Under the pieces are notes generated by a model. It worked only from the letters and a program-made list of their open reading frames with translations. It did not search any database and was not told the origin of the DNA. This document shows, in pieces, positions 17,028 through 35,800 of a DNA stretch of 64,000 nucleotides; the stretch's first letter is position 1, and the number at the start of each line of letters is the position of its first letter. Both the position numbers and the translations under genes were made by a program. Source of the stretch: a virus; the IMG/VR virus record IMGVR_UViG_3300015050_001142, positions 31,586 to 95,585 of that record; one strand, 5' to 3'.

Positions 17028-17783
17028 ATGCCTGTACTTGGTTGTATGAATCCGAATGCTGTTAATTATAATCCTTCTGCAACTCAGGAAGATAATAGTT
17101 GTATATACCTGATTAGCCATGATTCTGAATGTAAAAAGTTTATTGATTACACAGATGTAATTGATCGATCATTTACTTTATCTTATTCAATCATGGGGAA
17201 TTCATGGGTATTCTTTCATGATTATATACCGGATATGTACCTGCAAACAAGAGAGAATCTCTATTCAGTTAAGCAATCTGAAATTCGTAAACACCATGAA
17301 GGAGCACCAGGTAATTATGACGGTACTATTAGCCCGTTCTTTATTGATATAATATTTAGAGCTGAATCAGACCTATTATTAGAATCAATTACCTGGATAA
17401 CCGAATTCCTTGACGCTAATGCGAAAGATCAGGAATTCGATACATTAACTCATATTAGTATTTGGAATTCTACTCAACATTCAGGACGAATTGAACTTTC
17501 TCAAGTATTTGAGAATTTAGAATTTCAGGTAAGACGTACTCAGGGATCATGGACATTCAACGATTTCCGTAATATCATTAAAGACAATGGAGTACAGTTC
17601 TTACTCGATCTTTTCCATAATTATCGTCTGGATACAGATCAAATAGATCCTAACCTTTCATGGTACGATAAAGCTTTACTTCAAGATAAGTGGTTTTGTA
17701 TCAGATTTGAGTCTGATAATATATCAGGAAAGAAAGTTATCTTGCATGATACAACGATCACAGCATTAAAATCTAACCGATGA
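17028..17783 (+). CDS. Muzzle / stabilisation protein C-terminal part as a separate ORF
   Basis: SFTLSYS...WVFFHDYIPD, IWNSTQHSG, WTFNDFRN, DKWFCIRF resemble the C-terminus of crAss muzzle proteins; starts with a GCMNPNAVNYNPSATQEDNSC repeat. Confidence 0.7.
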   Translation: MPVLGCMNPNAVNYNPSATQEDNSCIYLISHDSECKKFIDYTDVIDRSFTLSYSIMGNSWVFFHDYIPDMYLQTRENLYSVKQSEIRKHHEGAPGNYDGTISPFFIDIIFRAESDLLLESITWITEFLDANAKDQEFDTLTHISIWNSTQHSGRIELSQVFENLEFQVRRTQGSWTFNDFRNIIKDNGVQFLLDLFHNYRLDTDQIDPNLSWYDKALLQDKWFCIRFESDNISGKKVILHDTTITALKSNR

Positions 17784-18763
17784 GTAAGTTATATAAACGA
17801 TATGGAAACGGTGGGGATACTACAAAAATAAGAGTGCCTAAACTTAATATGGCAGAAGAAATTGCTGCTATTAATGCAGGTAAAAAAGGATTTAGTGATG
17901 TACAAAGAGATAGCATTGCTGCAACATTTGATAGAAAATCATGGCTTCATACTGTTGATAAAGCTGGATTTGATACAACCAAAATTATAAATTCAAAAGC
18001 ACCTATAAATACAACTATAGTTAAACGAAGAATGGGTAATGGTGGAGATACAAGGTCTGCTGTTCTTGGTAATCAAATTGGTACTGCAGCTGGTGTCGGT
18101 GCGGGAGTCATTGATGCATTTGATGGCGGAAATGATTTAGGGTACCAGGGAAAAGGTACAGTAATTGGTAAGAGTGTGCTGACTGGAGCTGCAACTGGAG
18201 CTATGTTTGGACCGATTGGGGCCGGCGTTGGTGCTGTAGTTGGCGGTATTACCGGGATTGTTCGTGCCGGCCAACAAGCTAATGAACAAAAAACATTGAG
18301 ATCCCGTATCAAGACGAATAAATTCATGAATGATGCCGCTAATTCTCAAGCACGAATAGCAACTAATCCTGAACTTGTAACCGGTTCACAGAATGCTCAA
18401 TACTTTGCTGATGGTGGTCAAATGAAAGCACCACTTACTGAAGCTTATATGAAAGGCGGTAATGCGAAACAATTATCATCAACCAATAGCGAACTTGAAG
18501 GTAATAGCCATGAACAAGGTGGAATTGATGTACCTGCTGTAAATGCTAATCTGGAAGATGGCGAAACAACTGCAGGTACTTTTGTATTCAGTGAGAAATT
18601 AGGATTCGCTAAATTGCATAAGCCTATTGCCAGAGCGATCGGTAAGATTGAGGAGAAAGTACAAACTCCTGATCGTGTTGAAGCTATAAAACGATTGAAA
18701 GCAAGAGAACAGGAATTAGCACAGAAACAAGAATTATACAAAAAGCTTTATAATATAAATTGA
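17780..18763 (+). CDS. Cargo (ejected) protein 1-like
   Basis: Glycine-zipper hydrophobic segment (GAATGAMFGPIGAGVGAVVGG); GNSHEQGG, EDGET, FVFSEKL motifs. Confidence 0.7.
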   Translation: MSKLYKRYGNGGDTTKIRVPKLNMAEEIAAINAGKKGFSDVQRDSIAATFDRKSWLHTVDKAGFDTTKIINSKAPINTTIVKRRMGNGGDTRSAVLGNQIGTAAGVGAGVIDAFDGGNDLGYQGKGTVIGKSVLTGAATGAMFGPIGAGVGAVVGGITGIVRAGQQANEQKTLRSRIKTNKFMNDAANSQARIATNPELVTGSQNAQYFADGGQMKAPLTEAYMKGGNAKQLSSTNSELEGNSHEQGGIDVPAVNANLEDGETTAGTFVFSEKLGFAKLHKPIARAIGKIEEKVQTPDRVEAIKRLKAREQELAQKQELYKKLYNIN

Positions 18764-19842
18764 TTTCTATGAAACAATTATCTAAAGGATTTCGTAAGAT
18801 GGCTTATGGCGGTGATAATGATCCGTTCTCTGGTTCATCATCTGCATCTGTAAGTTCTACTCGTAAAAAGAAATGGAATCCAGATATTAAAGCTGCGCCA
18901 CAATCTTTTATGGGTACTGCTTTAAATCTTACGCCTAAGAAACGATTTACTGGAAGTACAGCAGATCCTGATTTGAAAAAACCTGGAGTTAGTGCAATTG
19001 TAGATAAGATATTGCCTTATGCAAGTAATATTGCTAATGCGTTTCGCCGTGCGCCAAAACCATCAGCTCCAATATTAAATGCAGCTCAGAAATTACAGAA
19101 GATTAATATGGATGATGCGCGGTACCAAGTTGGTCGTGAGATAGGCGCTTCTAATACTGGAGCCGATCGTACACTCGATAGTAATACTGCAATGTCAGTT
19201 AAGTTATTTAATTCCGGTCGTAAGATTAATGAATTAGGAAAGATTAATGAATTCGAGAAGAATGCCAATGCGGGAATCTCTAATCAACAAGCAATGCTGG
19301 ATTATCAAAATCAAGTTGGTAATAATGCAAAGCTTGATGAATTTAACAATACTATACTTGAAGGTAAGATTGCTGATAGCGCAAATCAATCTGCAAACTT
19401 TGCTAATGCTGCAGATAAATATATTGCTATTGGTAACGAGAGAGCTAAAGGTCAACTCGATCTTGATAAGACAAAAACACTTTCAACAATGTTCTCAACA
19501 AATGGACCAGGGGGTGGGTTGTTTAATCGTGAAAGATTACGTATTGCAAAGACAGGTGCTGTTGATCCATTACTTGGCCGAGCATTAACTCCAATGGAAA
19601 TAGCACAGATTGGATATACTAATGATGAACCAGTAGTTACCAGTACACCACCTGCAGTTCAACCTACCGCTGTTACGCCAGCACCGATAAGTTCCGATCG
19701 TATTCCTTATATGCCACCACAAGCAAAAGGGTATCCTTACAGTAATACCACTTTACCAAAACAATTTTCAGTTCCAGCTAATCCACTGATACGTAAATCA
19801 AAGTTTCAATTGGGTGGACAAATGAGAAAAGTTAAATACTAA
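18760..19842 (+). CDS. Putative cargo (ejected) protein
   Basis: Synteny; Asn/Ala/Gln-rich helical core; xxxGG motifs at both ends. Confidence 0.55.
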   Translation: MISMKQLSKGFRKMAYGGDNDPFSGSSSASVSSTRKKKWNPDIKAAPQSFMGTALNLTPKKRFTGSTADPDLKKPGVSAIVDKILPYASNIANAFRRAPKPSAPILNAAQKLQKINMDDARYQVGREIGASNTGADRTLDSNTAMSVKLFNSGRKINELGKINEFEKNANAGISNQQAMLDYQNQVGNNAKLDEFNNTILEGKIADSANQSANFANAADKYIAIGNERAKGQLDLDKTKTLSTMFSTNGPGGGLFNRERLRIAKTGAVDPLLGRALTPMEIAQIGYTNDEPVVTSTPPAVQPTAVTPAPISSDRIPYMPPQAKGYPYSNTTLPKQFSVPANPLIRKSKFQLGGQMRKVKY

Positions 19843-19845
19843 GCC

Positions 19846-22164
19846 ATGTCATTATACGATAGATTCCGTTTAAGCAATTCAACTGAGATCCCACGATATC
19901 AAGGATCAACTGGCCCTGAAGCAATTCAGGTAGGTAGTTATTTGCAAGGTAAGTACGATGTTGCTGAACAAGGTATTGGTACTATTGGTGATGCATCGAT
20001 GAATATTATTAATAATGCAGTACCTGAAGATCGTGAAGAAGCATTGAACTATCAAAGAGAAGTTAATAGTAAACTCGATGAATTCTCTAAACGTGGTGAT
20101 CTTGAGAACCTGGTACCTTCGGTTCAATCACTTGGTAGAAAGTTCTCAGCTAATTCTCAAGCATTCTATCAGCGTGCACAAGCTCAATCAGCCTTCCAAA
20201 AACAACTTGATGAACAGGATAAGGGTAAACCTGAAGCATTAACTCCTGAACAAAAACAGATAGCAATGATGATGGCCAGAACAAATAATGGCTCAATCAA
20301 GAAAGATGCTAATGGTAATTACATGGGTACTTGGTCAGGAGATACTATTGCTCCAAACGTTGATACCAGTAAGATCGTTGATGATGCAATGAAAGAACGT
20401 GTAATCAGTAAACATGGTTCAGAATGGTACGAGCGCCATAAGAATGATGCTACATTCAGTCGTGGTGCTGATGGAGAAATATGGATGAAACTTGGAAATA
20501 AAACTGAAAAAGAATCTCTTGGTAAAATCCATGATATTCTTAACCCAGCATTATCTAATAATCAAGCTTATCAAGCAGCTAAACAACGCGAAGGAAAGTT
20601 TGCCACATTCTTAGCTGGTAACAAAATTAAAGATCCGTCTGATTTATCTGATACTGTAACTGTTGCAGGTAAACAAGTACCAAATCCTATTAAGCAACAG
20701 GCATTACAATTATCAAAAGAGAAAGGAATTCCATTTAAAGATGCTGTTGCATCTATTGCCGGTAATATGTCTGCACAACAATTTGAGGATAATGCTTATC
20801 AATACGCATACAATAAATACTTCCAGGATGATAAACATACAACTGTAGATATGACTGCAGATCCATTTGCATTAAAGGGTACCAGAGAAGGACCGGATGA
20901 GTTCCGTATCGCTGGTGTAGGCCCGAATACTGAAGCTGGATTTGTTGGTGGTAATGTTGACCATGATATTACGCAATCTCAGAAAGCTATAAGTGGATTA
21001 CAAGATCAATTGAGTTTCAAACAAATTCAATTAGCTCAAGCTCAAAAGAATGGTCAACCTCTTGGTAATCTTGAGGCTGATATTGAAGCGTTACAAACTC
21101 AGATTAATGGTAATACTGCAATCATGAATGCAGCTACTGAAAGGAAAAATCGTGTAGCTGATGCGGCTGTACAGAAAGCTAATATTGATGATGGTACTGG
21201 AAAACCAATTACATCTTATGTACAGTTATTGAAATCTGAATTACCGAAAGTAACTGGTGAGGTACGTAAGCTTTATCCTAAAGGATTATTTATTGGTGGA
21301 ATGATTTTAAGTCCTGAGCAATTGGCTGATATTGCCATGAACAATAAAATTAAAACTATTGTACCTGCTGATGCCGGTAGTGGACCAGGAGCGATAAATT
21401 CAGCTAAAACTGCAATACAATTACCAAATGGTAAAGTAGTAGAATTTGCTAATAATTCTGAAAGAGCGAAAGTATTGAACGGATTATTACATTTGAACAC
21501 AAAAGTTCGTAATGGTGAAGTTACCAATCTTAATAAAGTAAATGAAGCTGCGAAGACTATTGATAAGACAGCATTGAAAAATTTTAGCATGACTCCAGAT
21601 GCTGTTGGATTAAATGAAGAAGAAGCTAAAGCAATCAGCCATTTTGGAATTGGCAGTGGTAAGGTTTATGAAGTACCAGGTACTATGCAGGAATATAAGA
21701 AAGCTGATATTCAGAAAATGATCTGGGAGCCTCAATCTTATAATATTCAAACTAATCGTATTCAAGGTAGGTTTAAAGATCCTGATAGTAAAGAATATAC
21801 TTCTCCAATGGAAATTGATATGCCATCGAATGTACCAAGTGAATTACGTACCCGTATTGCCAAACGCTCGAAAGGTGATCCTGCGTGGACTGGCATTGTA
21901 AAAGAGCTTGAATTAAATGGTAAAGATCCATTGAAATATATTCAACCAAATACTGGTATCACAGAACATCCAGGAAGTAAGCAACCATTGAAATTAACTG
22001 ATGGTACAAAGGTTGAATTATTCCTTGATCATCGCGGAACAACTCCTGAATGGCAGGTAAGAATACCAGGCAGTGATAAACCGGTTCGTAAACCAGATGG
22101 AAGTATTTATCGAACAACTAACCAGGCCATTGCACATTCATGGCTCGAAAGCTTAAGTAAATGA
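19846..22164 (+). CDS. Putative cargo (ejected) protein
   Basis: 772 aa helical, Cys-free, in the cargo cluster. Confidence 0.55.
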   Translation: MSLYDRFRLSNSTEIPRYQGSTGPEAIQVGSYLQGKYDVAEQGIGTIGDASMNIINNAVPEDREEALNYQREVNSKLDEFSKRGDLENLVPSVQSLGRKFSANSQAFYQRAQAQSAFQKQLDEQDKGKPEALTPEQKQIAMMMARTNNGSIKKDANGNYMGTWSGDTIAPNVDTSKIVDDAMKERVISKHGSEWYERHKNDATFSRGADGEIWMKLGNKTEKESLGKIHDILNPALSNNQAYQAAKQREGKFATFLAGNKIKDPSDLSDTVTVAGKQVPNPIKQQALQLSKEKGIPFKDAVASIAGNMSAQQFEDNAYQYAYNKYFQDDKHTTVDMTADPFALKGTREGPDEFRIAGVGPNTEAGFVGGNVDHDITQSQKAISGLQDQLSFKQIQLAQAQKNGQPLGNLEADIEALQTQINGNTAIMNAATERKNRVADAAVQKANIDDGTGKPITSYVQLLKSELPKVTGEVRKLYPKGLFIGGMILSPEQLADIAMNNKIKTIVPADAGSGPGAINSAKTAIQLPNGKVVEFANNSERAKVLNGLLHLNTKVRNGEVTNLNKVNEAAKTIDKTALKNFSMTPDAVGLNEEEAKAISHFGIGSGKVYEVPGTMQEYKKADIQKMIWEPQSYNIQTNRIQGRFKDPDSKEYTSPMEIDMPSNVPSELRTRIAKRSKGDPAWTGIVKELELNGKDPLKYIQPNTGITEHPGSKQPLKLTDGTKVELFLDHRGTTPEWQVRIPGSDKPVRKPDGSIYRTTNQAIAHSWLESLSK

Positions 22165-25100
22165 TAAACGATCTTAATGATATCTACGACCCACAACAAG
22201 TAGAGCAACCCAAACCAGTACCAAAGACAGCCGGCCCCGGACCTAAAAAACCAGTGCCGGCTGCTCCTATTGTGGAAGGGCCGGGAACACGCGCACAAAC
22301 ATCTGGAACTGATGTACCGGATTATGCTGGCTATATGCCTGAAGGTGTATACGATTCCAAAGGTGATTTAGATTTATTACGCGGTGAAAGACAATCGGGA
22401 TTTGCTAAACTTGGGATTCGTGCGGCTAATCTTATCCCCAATATGGCTGCATCTGTATTAGGTATGATCGGTTATACTGGTGCATTAGTAATGGATTGGG
22501 GAGATAACAGAGATTATTCCAATGCTTTTACTCAGGCTGCTGATGAGATGAAAGATCCATTCGGTAAAACTTATCGCAGAAGTAATGATGTATTCGCATT
22601 AAGTGATCCTACATGGTGGATAGATAATATTGCCAATCTTACCGAGATGGCGGTACCCTTTGCAGGAGAAGCAGCCCTGGTTGGTAATCTTATGAGTAAG
22701 GTTGCATCTGGTGCATCCAAATTGATGAGGCTTGGACAAACTGGTTCCCGTATAGCTCAGGGAGCTGCACAATTGGGTACTGCAGGCTTTACAGCTTATA
22801 CAGAAGCTGCTATGGATGGTGCTGGTGTATTCCAGAAAACTTATGATGCACAGGTTCAGAAATTACTTGGTAAAGGAGTGCCTGTTGATCAAGCGAAAGA
22901 ACAGGCCAAACATATCGCTGCTCAATCAGCTGCAACTACTGTACAACTCTCTACAGCAATGACAACATTGCTCAATTTATCATCTGTTGCTCCATTCTTT
23001 AAGAAATCCGAGGATGTGGTTGCTGATGTGTTAAAGAACCAAATGAAAAGAGAAGTTGGTGAAACTGTTGAACAATGGGGAAAGAGAATTAAGAACTTAC
23101 AAGCAACTCAATTCAAGGATAAATTATTTGGTAATACAAAATCAACTCTTGCGCGTGAAGCTGGTCAGGAAGGATTTGAAGAACTGGAACAATATTTCGC
23201 ACAGCGTACAGGTGAAGAAGAAGGTGAGAAGGGCACTGTACATGGATTCCTCGATCAGTTTAAACAACTGGAACATTTCTTTGATCGTACAATGGATCAA
23301 CAAGGTGCATTATCATTTGCATTAGGTGCATTCGGTGGTGTAGCTCAAACTGCATTGATACATAGTATTGTTCCATCAAAATATTCTGAGATCAATCAGG
23401 ATGGAAATAAAACTCAAGCTATTGATAAGGATGGTACACCAATGTTTGATAAGAAAGGTACCCCATTGTATGAGAGGAAATTAGTTACTCCTCGTACATA
23501 TGATCAGTGGAGTACTAATCAAACGTTCACTAATATGCGTGATGCATTAGCTACTGATATCACCAATTTCAGTAAGATGCAGAATGATTTTGTTACAGCA
23601 TCGAAAGCCGGTAATGCTGTTGAAGCAGATAAGATTCGTAATAAGATGTTCAATGTTGCTAATCTCCAGGCAATTAAAACTGGTATGGCTGAACCGTGGA
23701 TTGGTACTTATAATGATATTGCTTCTCTTGATAATACAGAATCAATTGATCCGGCTGATGAGAATGGCCCAACTGAAGCTATGCAACGTGGTTATGCAAA
23801 AGATCGTACTGATAATGAGTATAAACAAAAAGCAACTAAGGCCGCAGGTGATATTGTAAAGTACCAGAATGAATATGATAAACTGGTTAAACGATACGGT
23901 GCTCAATATGAAGGTAATAAAGGATTGATGCCTGTTATTGATAACATCTTTGCGCGTAAGGTAGCTTTGATGTCTGATAATGATACGTTGACAGAGCATG
24001 AAGAGAAGCTCAAGGTAATGGAAGCTGAGGAGAATGAGATGGTACATGTCTCTAATCCAATTGATTTTGATGCATCTCTTGGTGATTATCAGAAACAAGC
24101 TGCAGCTGCGCAGGAAGTAAGTAAACGATTGATTGCTGATCATAAATTAATTGAGAAAGCATTAGCTGATAATGATGTGGTACTCGCTAAGAAATTAGTT
24201 GAGAAATATAAAGCTGTTGGTATCAATGATAGCGATTTAGTAAGTGCATTAAAAGATCTTTCAACTAAGATCCATAAAGGAAATGAATTGCAGCTTCACA
24301 AGATGCAGCAAGCTGAGGAGAAATTAATGAATTCATCTGGATACCTGCAATGGAAAGAACATAATCCAACAAAGGAATTCAAAGATTATCGTAATGAAGT
24401 AGAAAAGAAATATAATCTTTCTGCAACTAATAATGCGTATCGTGCAAATATTGAAGAAGCTCGTGCTCAATATAATATTGCATCACAGAATTACAATGAT
24501 ATTGTGGCTGAGAAATCAGTTCACAAATTTGTATCTAAAGCCAGTAATTGGTTGAATGTATTAGAAGCTAATACTGCACGCATCCAGGCTGCAGAGCGAG
24601 CTGAGTTAGCAATTCGTGCGAAGGATAAAGCTACAATGCAAACATTGAATGGTACTGCACCTGTTGCTACAAGTGTACCAGTTACAGAAGCTGTTGAACC
24701 AGAACAGGTTGCTGAGGAGCCTGATGAGATACCAGAACCAGAAGTTGCTGTGATCACAGATGATATTCAAGATAAATTAGAAGATATTCAAGAAAGGCAA
24801 CGCAGTGATTTTGGTAATATGACTATTGCTCATCATTTAGCTCATGCACCTTTAACATCTGCAGATGGAAAGTTTGTTATAATTAAGGGTACCAAAGAGG
24901 AAGTTAAAGATCAAATTTTAGCTTTTCATGCAGCTGAAATTGCAGCTTTAGGTTTACCTGATATAGTACCACCAGTTGTAACTGATAGTCCAATCATCGC
25001 ATTACCAAATGATTCAATCGCTGAAGCCCTGCCTACAGAATTAGGAATGCACATGGGTAAGAAAACAGTTGATGTATTATCAATTGCAAACAGTACCATT

Positions 25101-26882
25101 GGCTATCATGAAGTAGAACGTAGTGGAAAGTATTATAAGATCACCGATAAAACCAAGCTCAATGAGAATACTAATCCTGATATTCTTACACCTGGCAGAT
25201 TAAATTCCGGCCATCCAATAAGATTAGAAATTGATCGTGATTATGATGGTACTGTAAACATCGATGATGAATTGATCCAGGATGAGTATGGTGAGAGAAT
25301 GCAACGTAATGAGAATACTGATCAATATTTCAAAGATGATAAAGTTGTACCTCGTCCAGAGAATATTGGTAATGTACCCATTCGTATTATCGATGTAATA
25401 ACCAATAAACCAATCGGATATGTACGTAGAGTTGATTGGGTACAGGCCAAGTATCCAAATACAACTGATTACAGAAATGTAGTTGATACATTATATGATA
25501 GTGAAGGGAATGCTACTGATAATATCGGTAAGCAAACTGCTGCATTGATGGCATTACGAAATAAAGTTGTTGAACAGTACAATGCTGGTGGTAAGCCAAC
25601 GGAAGCTAAACTCAGCGGTAAAGGAACAGGTACTTTAATAAGAAATTTATCTTTCAATGCGAATACTGAGAAAGCCAAATTAGAATTGGGTTATGCACGA
25701 TCACGTAAAGAAGAGAATAGTTTATTACCTGATTTGAGTTTGCAATTAGCTATTGTCAATAATGGTACCGCATACGTTGGTAAAGATTATCCATTCAAAG
25801 GATCGAAAGGATATGAGGAAGTGAAGTTGAATGATGGTAATATAGTTGTAATGTTACCCGGTGCGAATGGTGAGCATTTATATGCACCATTAGTTGGACA
25901 GATGTTAGCAGAGGGTACCCGCAGATCTGCAGTAGTAACAGTTGCTAAGGCGATTGAATTATTTTTAACCAATGACGGGTCAAGAGGAGACGTAGTTGAC
26001 GAAATAAAAGATTTACAGAGTAACACCGGTTTTGATATATCCACTGAAGAAGGTTTACGGAATTTTATCAATCAATATTTTACTTACACAGAATCTTTTA
26101 AAGATGTTGATACATCTCCGAATGCTACAGCTGGAGAGAAACGTGAAAGATTCTTATTCAGCATTGCAGATGCGATCGGATCTCAAACCAAAGGAAATAT
26201 TAAACTGGGATGGGCTTACTCAGGTAGACCGATCATCCAGGCTAAGTTAATTGATGGTAAGATCAACCCGGAGTTCATAGAAGCTCTTGAGGAAGGATTC
26301 AATACCCGTGCCCGCGCGGTGAACTACACTAAACCCGGTCAAGGATTAATTGGTATCAATTCTATTGGTGAGTTCAAAGATGTGATCTTTACAGTTGATG
26401 GCAAACCACGGTATACCAAGTATCCGAATTACAATGAGTATGTGAAATCATTCTCTAAAACTGCAGTGTATGGCCGCAACCAATTAAAGGATGGTACCTA
26501 TGTATACACTGCCAATCCAACAATGCCGATCGCTGTGGATACTGCAACTGAATTCCCAACACTGAATGTAACTGAGAATACAACAGGTACTGAACCAGTG
26601 GTTAATGGGCCAAAAACTTACAATGAGCAGGCTGCTGATATCTTTGATCAATTATCCAATTTCTCTATAATTCAAGCACCACCTGTTATCAGCTCCCAAG
26701 AGATTGGTACTGGCCCAGAGAATTCAGTGCCCTTAACTGAACAGAGTCTGCAGGAATTGTATAACTTTACCCCAGAGGCAAACCGCAACGGCAAAACTGT
26801 ACGCGAGGTCTATGAGCAACTGGCCAGCAATGGTCATACGTTCCTGGCTCAAGGTTACAATCCGTTTACCCGGTGCCTTTAA
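22161..26882 (+). CDS. Large cargo protein with N-terminal membrane-channel-like region
   Basis: 1573 aa; Gly/Ala-rich hydrophobic helices, EAGQEGFEELEQ and FALGAFGG motifs; directly precedes the vRNAP gene. Confidence 0.65.
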   Translation: MINDLNDIYDPQQVEQPKPVPKTAGPGPKKPVPAAPIVEGPGTRAQTSGTDVPDYAGYMPEGVYDSKGDLDLLRGERQSGFAKLGIRAANLIPNMAASVLGMIGYTGALVMDWGDNRDYSNAFTQAADEMKDPFGKTYRRSNDVFALSDPTWWIDNIANLTEMAVPFAGEAALVGNLMSKVASGASKLMRLGQTGSRIAQGAAQLGTAGFTAYTEAAMDGAGVFQKTYDAQVQKLLGKGVPVDQAKEQAKHIAAQSAATTVQLSTAMTTLLNLSSVAPFFKKSEDVVADVLKNQMKREVGETVEQWGKRIKNLQATQFKDKLFGNTKSTLAREAGQEGFEELEQYFAQRTGEEEGEKGTVHGFLDQFKQLEHFFDRTMDQQGALSFALGAFGGVAQTALIHSIVPSKYSEINQDGNKTQAIDKDGTPMFDKKGTPLYERKLVTPRTYDQWSTNQTFTNMRDALATDITNFSKMQNDFVTASKAGNAVEADKIRNKMFNVANLQAIKTGMAEPWIGTYNDIASLDNTESIDPADENGPTEAMQRGYAKDRTDNEYKQKATKAAGDIVKYQNEYDKLVKRYGAQYEGNKGLMPVIDNIFARKVALMSDNDTLTEHEEKLKVMEAEENEMVHVSNPIDFDASLGDYQKQAAAAQEVSKRLIADHKLIEKALADNDVVLAKKLVEKYKAVGINDSDLVSALKDLSTKIHKGNELQLHKMQQAEEKLMNSSGYLQWKEHNPTKEFKDYRNEVEKKYNLSATNNAYRANIEEARAQYNIASQNYNDIVAEKSVHKFVSKASNWLNVLEANTARIQAAERAELAIRAKDKATMQTLNGTAPVATSVPVTEAVEPEQVAEEPDEIPEPEVAVITDDIQDKLEDIQERQRSDFGNMTIAHHLAHAPLTSADGKFVIIKGTKEEVKDQILAFHAAEIAALGLPDIVPPVVTDSPIIALPNDSIAEALPTELGMHMGKKTVDVLSIANSTIGYHEVERSGKYYKITDKTKLNENTNPDILTPGRLNSGHPIRLEIDRDYDGTVNIDDELIQDEYGERMQRNENTDQYFKDDKVVPRPENIGNVPIRIIDVITNKPIGYVRRVDWVQAKYPNTTDYRNVVDTLYDSEGNATDNIGKQTAALMALRNKVVEQYNAGGKPTEAKLSGKGTGTLIRNLSFNANTEKAKLELGYARSRKEENSLLPDLSLQLAIVNNGTAYVGKDYPFKGSKGYEEVKLNDGNIVVMLPGANGEHLYAPLVGQMLAEGTRRSAVVTVAKAIELFLTNDGSRGDVVDEIKDLQSNTGFDISTEEGLRNFINQYFTYTESFKDVDTSPNATAGEKRERFLFSIADAIGSQTKGNIKLGWAYSGRPIIQAKLIDGKINPEFIEALEEGFNTRARAVNYTKPGQGLIGINSIGEFKDVIFTVDGKPRYTKYPNYNEYVKSFSKTAVYGRNQLKDGTYVYTANPTMPIAVDTATEFPTLNVTENTTGTEPVVNGPKTYNEQAADIFDQLSNFSIIQAPPVISSQEIGTGPENSVPLTEQSLQELYNFTPEANRNGKTVREVYEQLASNGHTFLAQGYNPFTRCL

Positions 26883-26888
26883 TAATCT

Positions 26889-29800
26889 ATGGCATGTTCC
26901 CACCTGGCTCCCAATGGAGAAAAATCACTGTTATATGATCAGTTAGAGCAGAAGTATGGTCCAGAGAAAGCCCATGAAATCTGGGATTTGGTACGTACCC
27001 AACAGTTTCTGAATAAACATGGGGACTGGAATGCCTATACTCCTGTTAAAACAGAATTATTTAAAGGTTTCTGGACAAGGGAACAGATTGAGAAGCAAAC
27101 TGATAAGGTATTCTTGTTTGGAGATAATACAAATGATCGGATGCATACAAAGTATGTTCCAACTTCTACACAGGCTGTAATACGTGGTTTACCAAATGCA
27201 ATTGGAATTGATACAAAAAGAGATAGAGGTACCACAAAAGCATCTTACTTTTCAGATAATGATTTAAATGTTTTTGAATTACAATTAGCTCAAGCTTTAA
27301 ACAAAGCTATTGATAGTGGTAAAATTATTGTAATACCCGCAGATGGAATTGGTACTGGTAAAGCAATGCTTAAGGAAAAAGCTCCAAAGTTATTCGAGTA
27401 TTTAGTTGATCAACTACAAAAATTACAAACTTCAATATTAGATGCTAACGGTGAACCTACAATTGATTGGGTACAGAAAACTCTTAATCTAACTGAGCCA
27501 ACTATTGAACAACAGAAAGAGATTATAGAAATATCTTTTGAACCAAAGGAGAATGAGAAAGCTAAGTACAGAAGTACAAGAGATTCAGAACAGATAATTT
27601 CTCAGAAGATCACAGATTTAATTCTTACTGCAACAGATAATCCTAATAAGCAATATAAGTTTAATTACCTGTTCACTGAATCAGGAAGTTTAAAGAGTGG
27701 GTATACGGTTAAAGAATTAGCGAATCTGATTGATCAATTTGATCTTCCATCGAATATTGTATTACCAGAAGCTTATCACAATCTGGTACGTAATTCTTCT
27801 AAGAGAATTATTGAACAGTTTCAATCAAATACGCCTGTTGAATTTCTTAATAGAAACGAGGAAGCGTTACAACTGGATATTGCCCGTATACTGGTACCCA
27901 AAGTTGATGCTAATGGTAAAACTCAAGGATATTTTACACCGGTACAGTACCAGGAGATTACTGATTCAATTGTTTCAGGTGTTCAATTAATACTGAGACA
28001 AGATCCAAATCAAAAAGCTAATGCAGTAATTAAAGCTATATATGCATTTGATCAAGGTAGAAGAAAACTTGAATCACTAAATAGCAAACCAGAGTTACAA
28101 GAAACATTAGGATTTATCCACAATCAGCGTGTAAGATTTGCTGAAGCTGCTATTAAACGATTATCTGATTATGGATTAAGTATTACTGATAAGAGTAAAG
28201 CCACGATCCTGAAGGCGGTACAATTGGTTCAACCATTAGCTGAACAACAGAAACAAGATTTCATTACAGCCAATCCAGGCATTGATGCAGATCAGATTGA
28301 TGAAGCAACTGGTGAATTTATTGAGGCGCAGGGCCGTGGATTAAAAGATTGGAATGATGTGGTGTTTGAACTCGATCCAAAGGATACAGCATCAGCCAGG
28401 ATTAAAATGTTCATCGCTACACTACCGGAAACCGATCGCGGTATATATAATGTTGATAAAGATGGTGTAGAGATATTCCCAGCAGCGATCAGAGTTGGAG
28501 ACAAAACCCTGGGCAACTATATTGAAGAATTGGGTCCATCACTGGCATTTAACAAGTGGAAGCAATTGGATATCAATGGATTACAACGGACAATCCGTGA
28601 GACAAACAGAAAGACTTTTTGGATGCAAAATGAAGAATTGTCTAAGGAATTTGCCAAGTTCTTAAACAATAATTTCCCAATGATCGCCAAAGAGAACTTC
28701 TTAGGCATGAAGAAATTGGTTGATTTCGAGGCTACATTCGACAATCTGTTACAGCTATTGGCCGATAAAAAGGCTGATTTCGCCGATTATATGAAGACTC
28801 TGGAAGATTCAGGGAAACCAAATCTCCAGTACCTGGTCAATGAGATGCGTAATGCTGATCCTCAGCTACAGAAAGAGTTCATGAAGGTTATGACCAAACA
28901 GTACCAGAACTTCACTATGGTACTCTTTAACCGTGATGCGGCCGGTTATACATTCAAGCTTCTCAATGCAAACAGGTACTCTCAAAAGAATAGTCTTATT
29001 AAGAATTGGCAGGAAGAGCAGAAACTTTCTGAGATGGTTATCATCAATGATCAGGGAGAACGTGTATTCGATGTAGAACGCGCACATGAACGTTGGATTC
29101 CAATGCTGGCCCGCGCACAACGTATTAACGATTGGGGAATAAAAGAGAATAAATCCTGGGCGATTAAATCGATGGGTAATATTCTTCGTGTATCAGGTAT
29201 CGATATAAGCGAGGAAATGGTTACAGATCTGTTTGATAACATGGAGAAATGGACCAAGGGTACCACATTCACAGGCGGTATTGGAAGACAATTCTCTGTA
29301 ACTCAAACCGGTGAACCTAATGGCTTGTTTTCTGCATTCATTATGAAAGCTGCAGGAGTAAGCAATGTAAATGATCTTGATATCGATGAAGAAACAACTG
29401 CAAGAGCTGAACAGAATAATCCTTTATACACTGAAAAAACTGCAATGCAGATATTAGCATCAGTTGTTGCTAAACATACCCCTGTATTACACTCATCAAA
29501 TCACAAATCAGTTGAAGGTAAAAGTGTTTGGGATTTTGGTTTAAATACTAAGCTCTCACATAAGTTCCGTGATATGACTGAGAACTTTGAAGAATTCAAG
29601 AAGATTCAACTACAGATTGATATTGCGAAAGATAGTTGGTTGTTGAATGCAATTAATAATACTCCAAAGTACCTGGAAAAAATGCAATTAGCTTATCTCG
29701 ATGGAGTTAAACCTGAATGGTCTAAACGTGGAACTACTCGTTCTGATATGAGTGATCGTGAACAGTTATTAACTGCAGTTTCGTTATTTCAGAATAAAGG

Positions 29801-32800
29801 ATATGGGTTCAATAAGATTCCAGTAGCAAACTATTTATCGCTTACTCATGCTGATAAAACTATGGCTCCGTTATATATGAATATGCCCAAATTGAATATG
29901 GGCGCATATGATTCGGTACCCGATACTATAACCGGTAAGATTGGATCAGCAATGTACAATGTATTCAGCAGTGAACATCAGCGTATTGTTAAGCAATCTA
30001 ATATTGATTTCAACAGTAAACAATATGATCAGGGAAAAAAGTTATTCTATTTCTTACCTGAATTCAATTATGATTCAATGAAGGAATTAGCTCGTCAGGG
30101 AATTATATCTCAAGGCGAGTTTAAATCTTTATGGGTAGATGGTCAACGTGTATTGTCTCCTATCATCCGTGCTGATAAGGAGTTGATTGTAATCAATAAA
30201 ATCATTCAGCGTCATTTAGATTCATTAGTTGCTAATACATTACAGCAATGGAAAGATACTGGTATAGTTTCTGAAGAGGGTACCATGTTCGATAAGAAAT
30301 ATATCAAACAGGTACTGTATGCTAACGGAATTAAATCAAGTAAGAAAGCTGCCAATGTTATTGAATCATTTACAGATAAGACAGGTAATAAACTTCATGC
30401 TAAACAAGTACAGGATATTATTGTACAAACTGCAGCAAAGGATTTCGCATGGAATTATTTCTTATTCAATACAGCATTAAGTCAATTGATGTATGGTGAT
30501 CCTGCGCTTACTTATAAAGCTGCAAAAGGAAAGAATCTTACTGATATGGACCATGTGAATAGTACCATGAAGGAATATGCTAAAAGATTGGCCAAAGACA
30601 TAGCGCCGGGGCAAGATCCGTACTGGCTTCCGAATGAGAAAACTTATAATACTATTACTCTGGCCGATGTTAAGACAGCAGAGAAATACATGTATAAATT
30701 CAGTGAAAGCTTATACGATTCCTATTCTGATGTTGAAGGCACAGATGCTCAGGAATTAACTACAGTTAAGGAACATATTCGTGTAATGCGAGCAATGGGT
30801 ACCATCTCTGAAACAACATTCAATGAGATGATGGATATTATCAATAAAGCCAAAGGTGGGTACTATGAATTCACTAAACCTGAACATCTGGCTATTGTAT
30901 TACAACCAATGAAACCAGTATACTCTGGTACACGTTTACCACAAAATGGTGCTCAACTTGAAGACTATATCAAGACTTCATCTTATCCATTATACCCACC
31001 ATTAACAGCAGGATTGGAGATTGATAAGTTTCGTAAGTTGATGGAAGATACCAATATCGATCGTGCTAATTATGCATCAGGAAAGAAGATTGGATTACCA
31101 GCGCAGTCATTAGAAATATTCACTCCAGAAGGAAAGTTTATCGATCCGGTTGGTGATGTAGTAGTTAAAGCAACTCAACAATTATCTCGTGATGGATTCC
31201 GTATTCAGCAAGAGGTACCCTATGATGAAAATAAGGAAGAGATCCGAACTGTATCTCAAATGAATAAGCTTATTGTTGAAGGTATTGGTGATATCAAAGG
31301 ATTTGAAGTACCGGGATATGGTAAGATGGATGGCACTCAAATTCGTGAATTGAAAGAGAATATTCGTAAGCAGATGATCAATATCGGCTATACGAATTTC
31401 AAGAATAAATTCAATGTAGATCCTGTATCATTAGTTATTCAGAATAAGAACAAAGTATATGATATGCTTGCCGATGAAGCAGAAGCTAAAGGATATACTT
31501 TGAATGAACGCCAAGCATTACTTATCCGTGATAAGGATGGAGAATTGGCAATTCCACTCATTTACAATACTGCAGCTGATAAGCTTGAGAGTATGATGAT
31601 GAGTTTGGTTAAGAAGATTGTTGATATTAAAGTACCCGGTAAATCATTTATTCAGGCATCTTCTGTTGGGTTTACTCGTGATAATATTCGTACTGAAGAT
31701 TCAATTGATAAATCCCAGGTTGTTTGGCTTGATGGATATGATGGTACCGCATTGAAAACTGTTCATCTCGGTGAAGATGGTACAGTACAAGCCGCACAGG
31801 TATTGGTACCCTTTAATTTTATGGATGAAGATGGTAATAGATTGAATGTACAGGACTTTATGATTGAACGTGATGGTCGTAAATACCTGGATACTGAACG
31901 TGTACCAAAAGAATTGATACAGATGATTGGTGCCCGTATTCCCAACCAGGGCCATAACTCTATGCTTCCAATCGAGATAGTAGGATTCTTACCAGCTAAT
32001 GCTGGCGATCTTATTATTGTACCATCAGCTATCACTAAGCAAATGGGTGCAGATTTCGATGTGGATAAATTATTCTGTTATCGTAGACCATATACATATA
32101 ATCCTGAAACTAAAATATTCTTACCTACTCGTGCAGAAGGTACTGAATATGAATTTGAAGACCAATTACAAACAGCTTATTTCGATGTACACTGGAGTAT
32201 TCTTACTCATCCTGAAATGCTTGAGAAGGTATTGAAACCTCTTGATAAACCAGATCTAAAAGAAGAAGCAGCTAAGATTAAAGTTCCTCAACCGAATAAT
32301 TACTACGATGTAATTACTCAGTTGAGTGAATTCCAGTCCGGTAAAGATGCGAAAGCATTAGTTGGATTAACATCTCTTTCTGTAACATTCAATGCTGTAA
32401 TTCAAGATAAAGGATTACATCTTATGAAGATTGAAGAAAATATAAATGATGAAGGTGGAATGCAAATGGCTTTTGTACGAGATTATATCTCTGTGCTTGG
32501 AGCTAATGGTGAAGAAATTAAACTCACTAATCTTTCTGGTAATGGTACCAGTGAATATAATGGAGAAAAAAGAACTAAGCATGATAACCATACAACTGTT
32601 CAATCTGGTGCGGTAGATAATGCCAAAGAGAGAACTCTTGATAAACCTAATATTACTACTAATACATTCCGCGCAATTGATGCAATGAACCAGTTAGAAG
32701 ATGAGAATGGTTATGCATTAGATTTATCTTATGGTGTTGGATTATTATCTCAACCAATTATTCGTGCATTTGATCAGATGATGAAACGTGGTAATGATTC

Positions 32801-35800
32801 ATTAAGTGATGAATTTACTGCAGATCTTAAGAATTCTGTGTTTGAACAATTGGAAGCAGAATATTCAGCAGATTTTCCAGATGCGATTACTGAAGCAGAA
32901 ACAATATTGTTTGATCCAGAGATATTCAGGTATACCCGTGATCAGGAACCTGGTACTCTTGAATATGCGACTCATCAGATTGCAGCATTGAATTTATTCA
33001 AACGATTCGATGCAGTTGGACAACGTAAAGCTGAGATTCAATCTGTATATAATCAAGATACTTCCGGTGCTGGGCCTAATATTTTAACAGCAATGGATAA
33101 AATATTGAAACAAGCTACTATAGAACAACCACCAATTGGTGGAACTGAGAGTTTAATGTTTCTTAATAATCCAGATGATAAAAATAATCAAACGAGTGAA
33201 TTAGATGTAACGTTTTATCGTACAGTATGGCCTGCTTACAGTATTCTTGGACAATTACTTCCATATACGGGGTTAACAGTGGGCGCATTTAAAGATATTC
33301 AGGAAACTGGTGGCCGTACATCATTATCGATCGATCAACAACGTAATATCATTCGTTCAATCAGATCAATTGTTTATACAAAAGGATCTTATTGGTATAC
33401 CAACGCTCAATCAGAACGTGTAAGATTATTATACAATACAGATACTGATTCTCTTGGTAAGCGTGTACTTGATGCAAAACGTACATGGGGTAAGGATAAT
33501 TATTTCTTACAACGATTAGATGGTCGTATTAGTGATACAAAGACCGGACCTGACTATGTAGAATATCAAGCTGCAAGTACTGGTAGAATTGATGAGGAGC
33601 AGAATGTACGTGCTTGGTTAGAAATGTTGATGAGTAAGGACGACATCCAAAGACATCTCGGTGAGGATCTGTTACGCTATGCATTCTTAACTGGTGGTGT
33701 GCAGGATGCAAACTCATTTGTAAAATTTGTACCAACTTCTTACATAGCTAATACACCATTCGGTGATATGCTCAAAGAAGAAGCTGATAAATTTGGTGAA
33801 CAACCAGGTTTTGTTTCTCAATACTTTCAGCATAACCCTGAGCTTGCAGTACAACTTTCTCGTGAAGCGTTTGGAGAATATGTAAGTGCTAATCAGGATT
33901 ATCCAGAGACATTTAAAGTACCATCAATTGATGATCCGAGATTTAATCGATTCAGAACATTGAGTAATGCTGATGGTACAATGAAACAATTTGCCTCTTA
34001 TCGTAGTAAGGCTGAAAACAAGTGGGTACTGTACCATATCAATCATGTTGGTGAATCAACTTATTATACTCGTATTGATACACTGGGTAATAAATTCACT
34101 GATGAGTACAATGGTAATGTAGATGGTGCACAGCGATCAATCTTTACAGAGAATCGTGCGTTAGCTTCATCCATTCCTTATGGTAATCCAATTCAAAATA
34201 TTATCAATGCAAGTATTCAAGAAGGATTTAAAGGCAATAATGCTAATTATTATAAAGGCGTATCTCCTATAGAACAAATTGGATTGAAAGAAGGACGATG
34301 GACTGTTGATGTAGCGATTAGAGATATTATAGATAATACACTCATTCCTGAGTATTTACGAACAACAGCAAAACTACTGGATAGCACTTCAGAAGGTGGT
34401 ATGACCAGAGAAGCACGTAAGGCTTTAAATTGGGAATTCAACGGTATTAATGTAGTCTTTGATACAACAATTTCAGGCCGTGGAAGTATGGATGCATCAG
34501 GTAATTTAGTTTTAAACCCAAGCAATATAAATACTCGAAAAAGTGCAGCTGAAACTTTTCTACATGAAATGCTGCATTCAAGAACTCAGGCAATTATTTA
34601 TGCTACAGGATTTGATGAAAGACTTTTTAATAGTGATTATAAAATATCAAATCTAATACGAGCTATTAATAAAGATTTTAATGAAAAGAATCCTGAGACT
34701 TATAAACATGTAAAAGAACTTGATCGTATTCGCTATGAAGCTTATAACGCTTTATCTAAGCAATTGGGTATTGAACGTATTAAGCAAATTGAAGCAGATC
34801 TTGCTAATGGAGTTGTAACTTCAGTAGATCATACAATGGTTTATGCATTATCCAATGTTCATGAGTTAGTTGCTCATGTAATGACCAACAGTGATGTAGC
34901 AGGGTACCTTAACACTATTCCATCAAGTACAGAGAAAGGATTCTTACAAAGATTCATTGAGAAGATTGCTGATATCTTGAAATCATTCTCTAAAGCATTT
35001 GGATTCACTGTTAAGGATGATTCATTATTAAAAGAAGCATTGATACATACTATCATGCTTACTCAACCAACTGATCGTAATGTAAATATTGATACAGCTC
35101 TTAAAGAAACGATGCCACTTATTGTGGATACTGAAGCTGAAGCAAAAGAATTACAAGAGATTGCTGAATTGAATTATCAACGCGAAACAACTATTGAACA
35201 ATCACCGATTGGTTTCACAGTTAATATTACCAATGAATCTAAATCAGCACCAGTAACTAAGATTGATAAAATCTTGGGTAAACTCCGTAAGCAATTAGAT
35301 GATGCTGGTTACGCGATATCAAATGCTAAAACTCCAACTGAACGTGTTGCATTAAGTATTCGCTACCGTGAATTGAAAGAAGATGTATATCAATTGGCCA
35401 GTCAACGTAATCTTGATTTGATTGTAACTACCGGGCAGAAGCAATTAGCTTGGGTTGATAAGGTACTGGCTCAAGATTCTCCATCAGCTACTGATGTACA
35501 GGCTGCCATTGAAGTGACTAATATCTGGAGTGGGTTGACTGAATTATTATACGGTGATCTTACCAAGATAACCGGTACTGATAAAGAATTCGCTCAAATA
35601 CAATCTGATGCACAGCAGAAAAGAATTGAGTTGATTAATTCTAAAGCCAGAGATATCGTTGTTGAATTCTTGAATGGTCGCTATGTTGTTACATCAACTG
35701 CAGATTTCAAATCCAATGTTGAAGAACTTTCTCAAGGTGTTGCTAAATTCCTTGAGCTGGCCCGTGTGAAGCCGGTACTGGCACAAGCAATATCTGTAAT

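Follow-up and report, generated by a model that had tools for sequence, protein, structure and literature searches.

In the human gut, no phages are more abundant than Crassvirales, which deliver megadaltons of protein, their own RNA polymerase (RNAP) among it, ahead of their DNA. A trio of crass-like cargo proteins (gp47/gp50/gp49 in crAss001 and gp65/gp66/gp67 in phi14:2) is carried in the virion, and in some phages the three are made as one polyprotein (PMC10172136; bioRxiv 10.1101/2020.03.07.982082). Packaging of the trio was established by mass spectrometry for crAss001 and phi14:2 only, the crAss001 work covering reduced as well as untreated samples (PMC10172136; bioRxiv 10.1101/2020.03.07.982082). 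The authors of the crAss001 structure guessed that the order of ejection depends on the packing of the proteins and on their mutual interactions, and disulfides do form in crassvirus particles, having been seen in the tail and gp57 of crAss001 (PMC10172136). The ejected proteins of N4-like phages, such as N4 gp50 and DEV gp71, gp72 and gp73, are nearly free of Cys, with a reported frequency of 0.00075% (PMC11445570; Kazmierczak et al. 2002), and passage through the oxidising periplasm is the published reason for this suppression (PMC11445570). In the cyanopodophage A4 (Anabaena phage A-4L), cryo-EM shows a disulfide between Cys1715 of gp27 and Cys5 of gp26 in the packed pre-ejectosome; that bond was treated as a local stabiliser, with no general rule drawn from it and no link made to gene fusion (PNAS 2025, PMC12002296).

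Layout and identity of the cargo locus

The stretch of viral DNA that we analyzed, referred to here as the window, is 64,000 nucleotides long. When the window was used to search sequencing runs, the shares of matching words were only 5-6%, and no habitat could be assigned. Its cargo block consists of five ORFs on the + strand. In the first (17780-18763, 327 aa), residues 142-161 form a hydrophobic, Gly-zipper-like segment, placed like the transmembrane (TM) helix predicted at residues 136-158 of crAss001 gp45 (PMC10172136). It is followed by ORFs of 360 aa (18760-19842) and 772 aa (19846-22164), by a 1573-aa ORF (22161-26882), and by a 3899-aa ORF (26889-38588). The last two genes meet at a junction (26880-26888) made up of the tandem stops TAA TAA and the triplet TCT, with 6 nt separating the stop codon from the ATG that follows.

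We designate the gp47-, gp50- and gp49-like parts of the cargo trio modules A, B and C, respectively. The 1573-aa protein is a module A, homologous to crAss001 gp47 and phi14:2 gp65: an alignment of the window's clade matches Steigviridae A with an hhalign Prob of 97.9 (E 3e-13) and Intestiviridae A with a Prob of 99.4 (E 1e-21). The 3899-aa protein carries the two-barrel RNAP DxDxD motif as DFDVD at residues 1722-1726, matches phrog_16227 at 1.6e-50, and matches the RNAPs of FpV4, phi14:2 and crAss001 by tblastn. A profile of Steigviridae module B matches it at 2e-45, mapping to residues 601-2074, and in hhalign the C-terminal 1500 aa of its family align with gp49-like alignments (Prob 99.2 and 99.0) to the end of both. 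By these matches, the 3899-aa protein is a gp50-like virion RNAP fused to a gp49-like C-terminal part, and we refer to it as B-C. Pairwise phmmer yielded no module mapping across families, whereas family profiles with hhalign succeeded. Likewise, the module A gene as query gave no match by megablast or in a protein search of the phage collection, and a search for related loci with the single A protein found none, whereas the alignment as query did recover loci. A DUF7831 (PF25176) module (27060-27413) is inserted after the N-terminal leader of the 3899-aa protein, and we rejected it as a positional anchor for the junction, given that it sits at many different places in giant proteins.

The original prediction described the 1573-aa product as a channel-forming protein that tows the polymerase. 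This is not borne out: the protein is of the gp47/gp65-like, RNAP-associated kind and has no hydrophobic segment, and of the four cargo ORFs other than the polymerase, only the gp45-like 327-aa ORF has a TM-like segment. The zincin domain of gp47-like proteins was not detected in module A of the window with Pfam. We also considered a cysteine switch on a zincin domain, like that of MMPs, and rejected it because it leaves the N-terminal Cys residues on B and C unexplained.

Cysteine depletion and the two terminal cysteines

The five cargo ORFs (17780-38588, 6931 aa) contain 3 Cys in total, where approximately 69 would be expected from the 0.99% found in the rest of the window's ORFs (129 in 13,019 aa). 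The resulting frequency of 0.043% is a suppression of the N4/Schitoviridae type, and the deficit is highly significant (Poisson P of approximately 8e-26; Fisher 3e-20). Base composition is not its cause, because the two off-frames of the cargo-block DNA hold a mean of 273 TGY triplets each, as against 3 in frame. The predicted purge of Cys from the cargo proteins is thus confirmed, as is the Cys-rich character claimed for the structural neighbors, of which a 1661-aa muzzle-like protein has 22. Purging of ejected proteins is itself already known for N4-like phages. Across the modules of the window and the reference crass-like genomes described below, Cys amounts to 0.15% of 133,131 aa. As a separate observation, the giant proteins P0103, P0135 and P0143 are Cys-free.

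The count of three Cys that had been claimed for these ORFs is exact. The 327-, 360- and 772-aa proteins have none, the 1573-aa protein has one (C1572), and the 3899-aa protein has two (C3 and C1730). C1572 is the penultimate residue of module A (...FTRCL*; TGC codon at 26874-26876, + strand), and C3 lies close to the start of B-C (MACSH...; TGT codon at 26895-26897, + strand), so that the stretch 26874-26897 runs from TGC through TGT with only CTT TAA TAA TCT ATG GCA between the two codons. The third Cys follows the catalytic motif of the RNAP (DFDVDKLFCY, 32052-32078, + strand).

The two terminal residues are conserved on both sides of the junction. In the module A family (29-100% identity, 1573-2593 aa), 48 of 48 members have exactly one Cys, always as the last or second-last residue, and the alignment shows C1572, P1568 and F1569 to be invariant within a conserved C-terminal motif, NPF-x-x-C-(x). 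A Cys is found at residue 3-5 in all 27 close relatives of the window's virion RNAP, 15 of which have no other Cys in approximately 4000 aa; in the window it falls within a conserved leader, M-A-(I)-C-x-H-L-A-P-N-G-E-K-S. Both residues are present in each of the four related IMG/VR loci that hold the A/B-C junction, whereas homologues of A and B-C from the protein database were assigned to each other by the equal lengths of their contigs. The co-conservation expected under the original prediction is thus found. The window therefore displays a head-to-tail signature of lone, conserved Cys residues, C1572 of 1573 facing C3 of 3899. C1730 behaves differently. Its position is occupied by Thr or Ala in 25 of the 27 relatives, and judging from this alignment the residue is a lineage-specific Thr-to-Cys change.

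It might be argued that the terminal Cys residues are neutral leftovers of common ancestry, or of sites at which a polyprotein was once processed, and have no present function. The genomes are all related, and descent could account for part of the conservation. Nevertheless, Cys has been actively removed elsewhere in these same modules, and the internal C1730 is unconserved, yet the terminal residue of module A is invariant down to 29% identity as the sole Cys of the protein. We regard neutrality as very improbable. Two further candidates were rejected: a split intein or other trans-splicing element, since the Cys residues are wrongly placed for intein blocks and no module has the size of an intein, and a lipobox or lipidation site, since there is no signal peptide.

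Terminal cysteines at split and fused junctions

To place the window's junction among others, we scored the module ends of the window and 21 reference crass-like genomes (Steigviridae, Intestiviridae, Suoliviridae and FpV4). Where A|B or B|C is split, 54 of the 55 facing ends have a Cys within 10 residues, whereas the outer ends (the N end of A and the C end of C) have one in 0 of 43 cases. For background ORFs, the corresponding values are 15 of 189 at the N end and 19 of 189 at the C end. The difference between split-junction and outer ends gives a Fisher P of 3.6e-27 with the kinship of the genomes ignored, and because they are related, independent events are fewer than the counts suggest. 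The same terminal pattern is present in the cultured phages crAss001, phi14:2, DAC15 and FpV4. Four genomes with gene A on the opposite strand (crAss001, DAC15, cr106_1 and cr128_1) also obey the rule, which excludes a nucleotide-level cause and rules out the translational-coupling signal that we had considered.

The prediction that the pair should be lost where the genes are fused also stood up to comparison. The FpV4 A-B fusion (4287 aa) has one Cys, at position -2, and the full A-B-C fusions P0097 and P0104 have none at all. In L028, a natural A-B fusion, the junction consists of an acidic linker that contains neither a Cys nor the NPF-x-x-C motif. Among the matches listed for the C-terminal half of module A, there were no longer, fused relatives. 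The Cys pairs follow several separate states of fusion and fission in different families, a pattern that neutral descent does not readily explain.

Loss at fused junctions does not by itself imply that the two residues are partners. It would equally be expected if each Cys had its own end-dependent role, whether as an anchor to the portal, the capsid interior or DNA, or in the formation of homodimers, with no link between A and B-C. Unpaired terminal Cys residues do occur in small cargo proteins of p-crAssphage (861 aa) and FpV4 (598 aa), and a further C-terminal Cys that lacks an obvious partner is present in both cr116_1 (in an 833-aa cargo protein) and IAS virus. In cr273_1, the A-B protein lacks a C-terminal Cys, its last Cys being at -50. 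Apart from cr116_1, IAS virus and cr273_1, however, C-terminal and N-terminal Cys residues balance 1:1 in most genomes, and the same signature in A4 corresponds to a hetero-pair. It is the lack of Cys at the outer ends, and only this, that argues specifically for pairing. We therefore consider independent roles improbable.

We found nothing on a terminal-Cys rule in crassviruses in a literature search, and the papers on crAss001 and phi14:2 do not mention terminal cysteines (PMC10172136; bioRxiv 10.1101/2020.03.07.982082).

A proposed inter-chain disulfide and its counterparts in other phages

The most likely reading, and one that we hold to be rather probable on the strength of the comparisons above, is that one inter-chain disulfide inside the particle ties the C-terminal end of A to the N-terminal end of B-C; this bond would stand in for the peptide bond of the polyprotein. 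The idea of a disulfide-linked polyprotein built from separate genes appears well supported by comparison, because both sequence checks (co-conservation and loss at fusions) pass and because the A4 structure shows the same signature as a disulfide. Under this proposal, A and B-C would be packaged cargo that passes through the tail and the cell envelope at least partly unfolded, with its cysteines purged as in other ejected phage proteins. The two Cys residues retained by selection, at the penultimate position of A and at residue 3 of B-C, would form a single disulfide in the particle, joining A head to tail with B-C and restoring from two genes the single A-B-C polyprotein of other crass-like phages. 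The conserved modules beside each Cys (NPF-x-x-C on A, and C-x-H-L-A-P-N-G-E-K-S on B-C) would probably dock the two ends for bonding; AlphaFold modelled these end modules with low confidence (mean pLDDT 49 and 43). Such a link would ensure that the chains are packaged 1:1 and would hold them together as a near-linear thread during assembly and ejection, after which it could be opened by the reducing cytoplasm of the host. For this phage, we infer the existence of the bond, its timing and its purpose, be it towing and ordering or the stabilization of a packed cargo complex.

A counterpoint to a disulfide is that virions assemble in a reducing cytoplasm and that many of the hosts are gut anaerobes. 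A metal ion (Zn, Fe or Cu) shared by the two terminal Cys residues would need no oxidant and would thus suit assembly in this compartment; such a clasp fits the pairing rule equally well, and a His at +2 of the N-terminal Cys (C-x-H) is found in 27 of the 27 close B-C relatives of the window's clade. Across families, though, conservation at the ends is limited to the Cys, with no second ligand recurring in Steigviridae, Intestiviridae or Suoliviridae, and the sole solved example of the signature, that of A4, is a disulfide. A shared metal therefore seems to us an unlikely alternative to the disulfide.

If the disulfide is real, a conserved covalent link between cargo proteins would provide a concrete mechanism for stoichiometry, ejection order and release, and would account for fused and split forms of the modules being interchangeable in evolution. 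It would also unite the Cys purging of N4-like phages with the single disulfide seen in A4. More tentatively, and as a possibility that we would not yet favor, a terminal-cysteine code may operate generally in crass-like phages, with a disulfide replacing the peptide bond wherever A-B-C is split. Packing, threading through the tail and delivery would then involve a single covalent chain made up of the RNAP and its partners, with their order fixed and their ratio 1:1. In the host cytoplasm, reduction would serve as a sensor of the compartment, setting the polymerase free and perhaps activating it. Such an arrangement might have evolved independently in A4 and might be a common principle of podophage ejection.

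Compared with crAss001 and phi14:2, the window shares homologous modules A, B and C and cargo that is associated with an RNAP, and differs in that B and C form one gene, which leaves one junction and one Cys pair. N4-like phages resemble the window in combining a giant virion RNAP with companion ejection proteins that are almost without Cys. Unlike those of the window, however, their ejected proteins have no conserved terminal Cys and have not been proposed to be chained covalently; moreover, the N4-like RNAP is of the T7-like single-subunit type, whereas that of the window is a two-barrel DFDxD enzyme that in the phrog and tblastn searches matches crass-like RNAPs only. The resemblance to A4 is of another kind. 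The only Cys of A4 gp27 (1717 aa) is at 1715 and the only Cys of gp26 (1114 aa) is at 5, so that, as in the window, large internal or ejection proteins are encoded side by side, with a lone Cys near each of their facing ends. Neither protein matches those of the window by phmmer at E<=10 or by hhalign (Prob 0.1), and given this lack of detectable sequence homology the resemblance is one of signature and not of descent. Furthermore, unlike the pair in the window, the Cys-linked pair of A4 includes no RNA polymerase.

Cysteine content of the cargo genes

The window derives from a 95.6-kb IMG/VR virus record and contains a crass-like virion module in which genes for a portal, a major head protein, and a muzzle-like protein of 1661 aa are followed by five cargo ORFs at 17780-38588. 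These encode proteins of 327, 360, 772, 1573, and 3899 aa that contain 0, 0, 0, 1, and 2 cysteines, respectively. Given a rate of 0.99% Cys in the window's other ORFs, approximately 69 cysteines would be expected in the five-ORF block, whereas only 3 are present (Poisson 8e-26). Read in either off-frame, the cargo DNA contains ~273 TGY triplets, which rules out base composition as the cause of the Cys scarcity. Just ahead of this block, a 251-aa ORF (17028-17783) matches the C-terminal part of muzzle-like PHROG families and resembles a C-terminal fragment that has split away from the muzzle protein. Its N-terminal cysteines at residues 6, 25, and 35 lie at nearly the same positions in two relatives (5, 24, and 34 in L024; 4, 23, and 33 in L027).

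The only cysteine of the 1573-aa protein, C1572, is its penultimate residue. The 3899-aa protein has C3, within MACSH, and C1730, four residues past the DFDVD catalytic motif. From Cys codon to Cys codon, the gene junction (26874-26897) runs over CTT TAA TAA TCT ATG GCA, the tandem stops lying at 26880-26885. These counts and positions confirm the original prediction that two lone cysteines face each other across this junction.

Module identity and conservation of the junction cysteines

The window's polymerase matches the crass-like virion RNA polymerases (vRNAPs) of Flavobacterium phage FpV4, phi14:2 (gp66), and crAss001 (gp50). In profile comparisons, the 3899-aa protein has an RNAP core that maps to a gp50-like profile, and its last ~800 residues align with the gp49-like family as far as that family's end (Prob 99.2). 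The 1573-aa family is homologous both to crAss001 gp47 (hhalign Prob 97.9) and to the 'RNAP-associated/zincin' protein of Intestiviridae (Prob 99.4). These comparisons indicate that the window encodes a gp47-like module A followed by fused modules B (gp50-like RNAP) and C (gp49-like). In phi14:2, the three proteins are described as virion components that form one fused polyprotein in some phages (bioRxiv 10.1101/2020.03.07.982082). A Gly-zipper-like segment is found in the 327-aa ORF (residues 142-161), near the position of the predicted transmembrane helix of crAss001 gp45.

We identified 47 relatives of the 1573-aa protein by database search (29-68% identity, 1655-2593 aa). All 47 have a single cysteine, as the ultimate or penultimate residue, within NPF-x-x-C-(x), and C1572, P1568, and F1569 are invariant columns in a 23-sequence alignment of the family. 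With the first 700 aa of the vRNAP protein as the query, we found 26 close B-C relatives (3760-4572 aa), each with a cysteine at residue 3-5 within M-A-(I)-C-x-H-L-A-P-N-G-E-K-S. This is the sole cysteine of ~4000 residues in 15 of the 27 B-C family members. The junction is present in four related IMG/VR contigs, and both cysteines lie side by side in all four, so the terminal cysteines are co-conserved, as had been proposed. C1730 (32076-32078), by comparison, is not conserved: the residue is Thr or Ala in 25/27 relatives, and the Thr-to-Cys change is common only to the window and its nearest relative. In the vRNAP, DUF7831 (PF25176; 27060-27413) follows the conserved N-terminal leader and precedes the remainder of the protein. 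This highly conserved module (up to 73% identity) is found at very different positions in other giant crass-like proteins, ranging from close to the N-terminus to the far C-terminal end, and behaves like a shuffled cassette.

Terminal cysteines at split and fused junctions

Cargo regions were surveyed in 21 reference genomes (Steigviridae, Intestiviridae, Suoliviridae, and FpV4), 5 of which were read with TAG as Gln. An end was scored as positive if it had a cysteine within 10 residues. In Steigviridae with separate A, B, and C proteins (crAss001, phi14:2, DAC15, cr106_1, and cr128_1), cysteines are found at the end of A, at the start and end of B, and at the start of C; phi14:2 has no cysteines other than these four in 5398 aa. 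Gene A is on the opposite strand in crAss001, DAC15, cr106_1, and cr128_1, which excludes a nucleotide-level or translational-coupling cause. Where B and C are fused, as in the window and six Intestiviridae, the A|B pair alone remains. Where A and B are fused, as in seven Suoliviridae and FpV4, the B|C pair alone remains, and the 4287-aa FpV4 fusion has one cysteine, at -2. Two full A-B-C fusions, P0097 (4424 aa) and P0104 (5193 aa), have none. In L028, which is related to the window's clade, A and B are naturally fused through an acidic linker, and the junction has neither a cysteine nor NPF-x-x-C. The pair is thus absent where the genes are fused, in agreement with the original prediction.

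Overall, 54/55 ends facing a split junction bear a cysteine, as compared to 0/43 outer ends (the N end of A and C end of C; Fisher P 3.6e-27, uncorrected for shared ancestry). The independent evidence for the rule is a handful of separate fusion and fission states in different families. N-terminal cysteines lie at residue 3-6 and C-terminal ones mostly at -1 to -4. Among background ORFs of at least 250 aa at the same loci, 15/189 have a cysteine at the N end and 19/189 at the C end. Neutral inheritance of the terminal cysteines is contradicted by their invariance in cargo proteins otherwise purged of cysteine. Independent roles for each cysteine at its own end would fit their loss at fusions, but do not fit the Cys-free outer ends. 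We found no statement of a terminal-Cys rule for crassviruses in the literature.

The only clear exception among the genomes surveyed is cr273_1 (L015 7341-24725), whose 5794-aa A-B fusion lacks a cysteine within 10 residues of its C-terminus, the closest being at -50; the protein that follows still begins M-F-C. In cr116_1 and IAS virus, the B region is split further and has an extra unpaired C-terminal cysteine; the IAS virus record contains Ns. The B region of cr116_1 (L020 13134-27845) is broken into ORFs of 2507 and 833 aa, which are separated by a LAGLIDADG-type endonuclease gene. Each piece is Cys-terminated, but the 833-aa piece lacks an N-terminal cysteine. This break may reflect interruption by an intron or an intein-like element, or else be an exception to the rule. 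Lone terminal cysteines with no evident partner occur in two small cargo proteins at the gp45-like position, at -2 in the 861-aa protein of p-crAssphage (L006 5084-7669) and at residue 5 in the 598-aa protein of FpV4 (L003 8051-9847). In another relative (L027 5900-9956), an I-K-P-F motif lies at the ends of three consecutive cargo ORFs: a 438-aa protein ends in IKPFC, its only cysteine, a 200-aa protein ends in IKPFA, and a 712-aa protein has QIKPFAG at residues 15-21.

Proposed inter-chain link and comparison with known systems

A link between the two chains is strongly suggested by the comparison across phages and by a solved precedent, and its best reading is one inter-chain disulfide from C1572 of A to C3 of B-C, which would replace the peptide bond found in fused polyproteins. 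A metal ion common to both cysteines is a possible alternative, for which C-x-H is present in the window's clade; however, the various families do not have a conserved second ligand in common. The conserved ~45-residue modules adjoining both cysteines probably serve in docking. AlphaFold models of the end regions are of low confidence (pLDDT 49 and 43 overall), and the modules alone reach pLDDT ~70. Each module is modelled as a short helical unit, a short strand and then helices, and the adjoining cysteine falls among the few residues at the chain end, which are unstructured. A similar N-G-(x)-K-[ST], ~3 residues, [VL]-[YF]-x-x-L pattern occurs in the C-terminal module of A (26740-26879) and in the B-C leader (26889-27030), and the two may be related docking units.

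Because each cysteine lies within a few residues of its chain end, the linked product would be nearly linear, which would suit N-to-C threading of a narrow channel, as proposed for gp45 (PMC10172136). The original prediction also had a channel-forming 1573-aa protein tow the polymerase. That detail is not supported, as the 1573-aa protein has no hydrophobic segment; towing, ejection order, and reductive release are inferred.

Suppression of cysteine in ejected proteins is known from N4 gp50 and from the ejection operon of Schitoviridae, where passage through the periplasm is the proposed reason (PMC11445570). The crAss001 atlas, for which MS was run on both reduced and untreated samples, describes virions from an anaerobic host that have disulfides in the tail and in gp57, and is silent on cargo termini (PMC10172136); oxidation of crassvirus particles therefore does occur. 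Small thioredoxin or thiol-disulfide isomerase-like genes annotated near the replication module of cr8_1, cr128_1, and Rudgehvirus (L011, L014, and L007) may bear on virion thiol chemistry.

The solved precedent is Anabaena phage A-4L, in which the only cysteine of gp27 (1717 aa) is Cys1715 and the only cysteine of gp26 (1114 aa), encoded by the next gene, is Cys5 (PMC12002296). Cryo-EM of the packed pre-ejectosome reveals a Cys1715-Cys5 disulfide, and a cleft of gp26 holds the C-terminal helix of gp27 (PMC12002296). The A-4L proteins have no detectable homology to those of the window and bear the same terminal-Cys signature. This signature has therefore arisen also in a system that is either unrelated or diverged beyond recognition, where it corresponds to a real bond.
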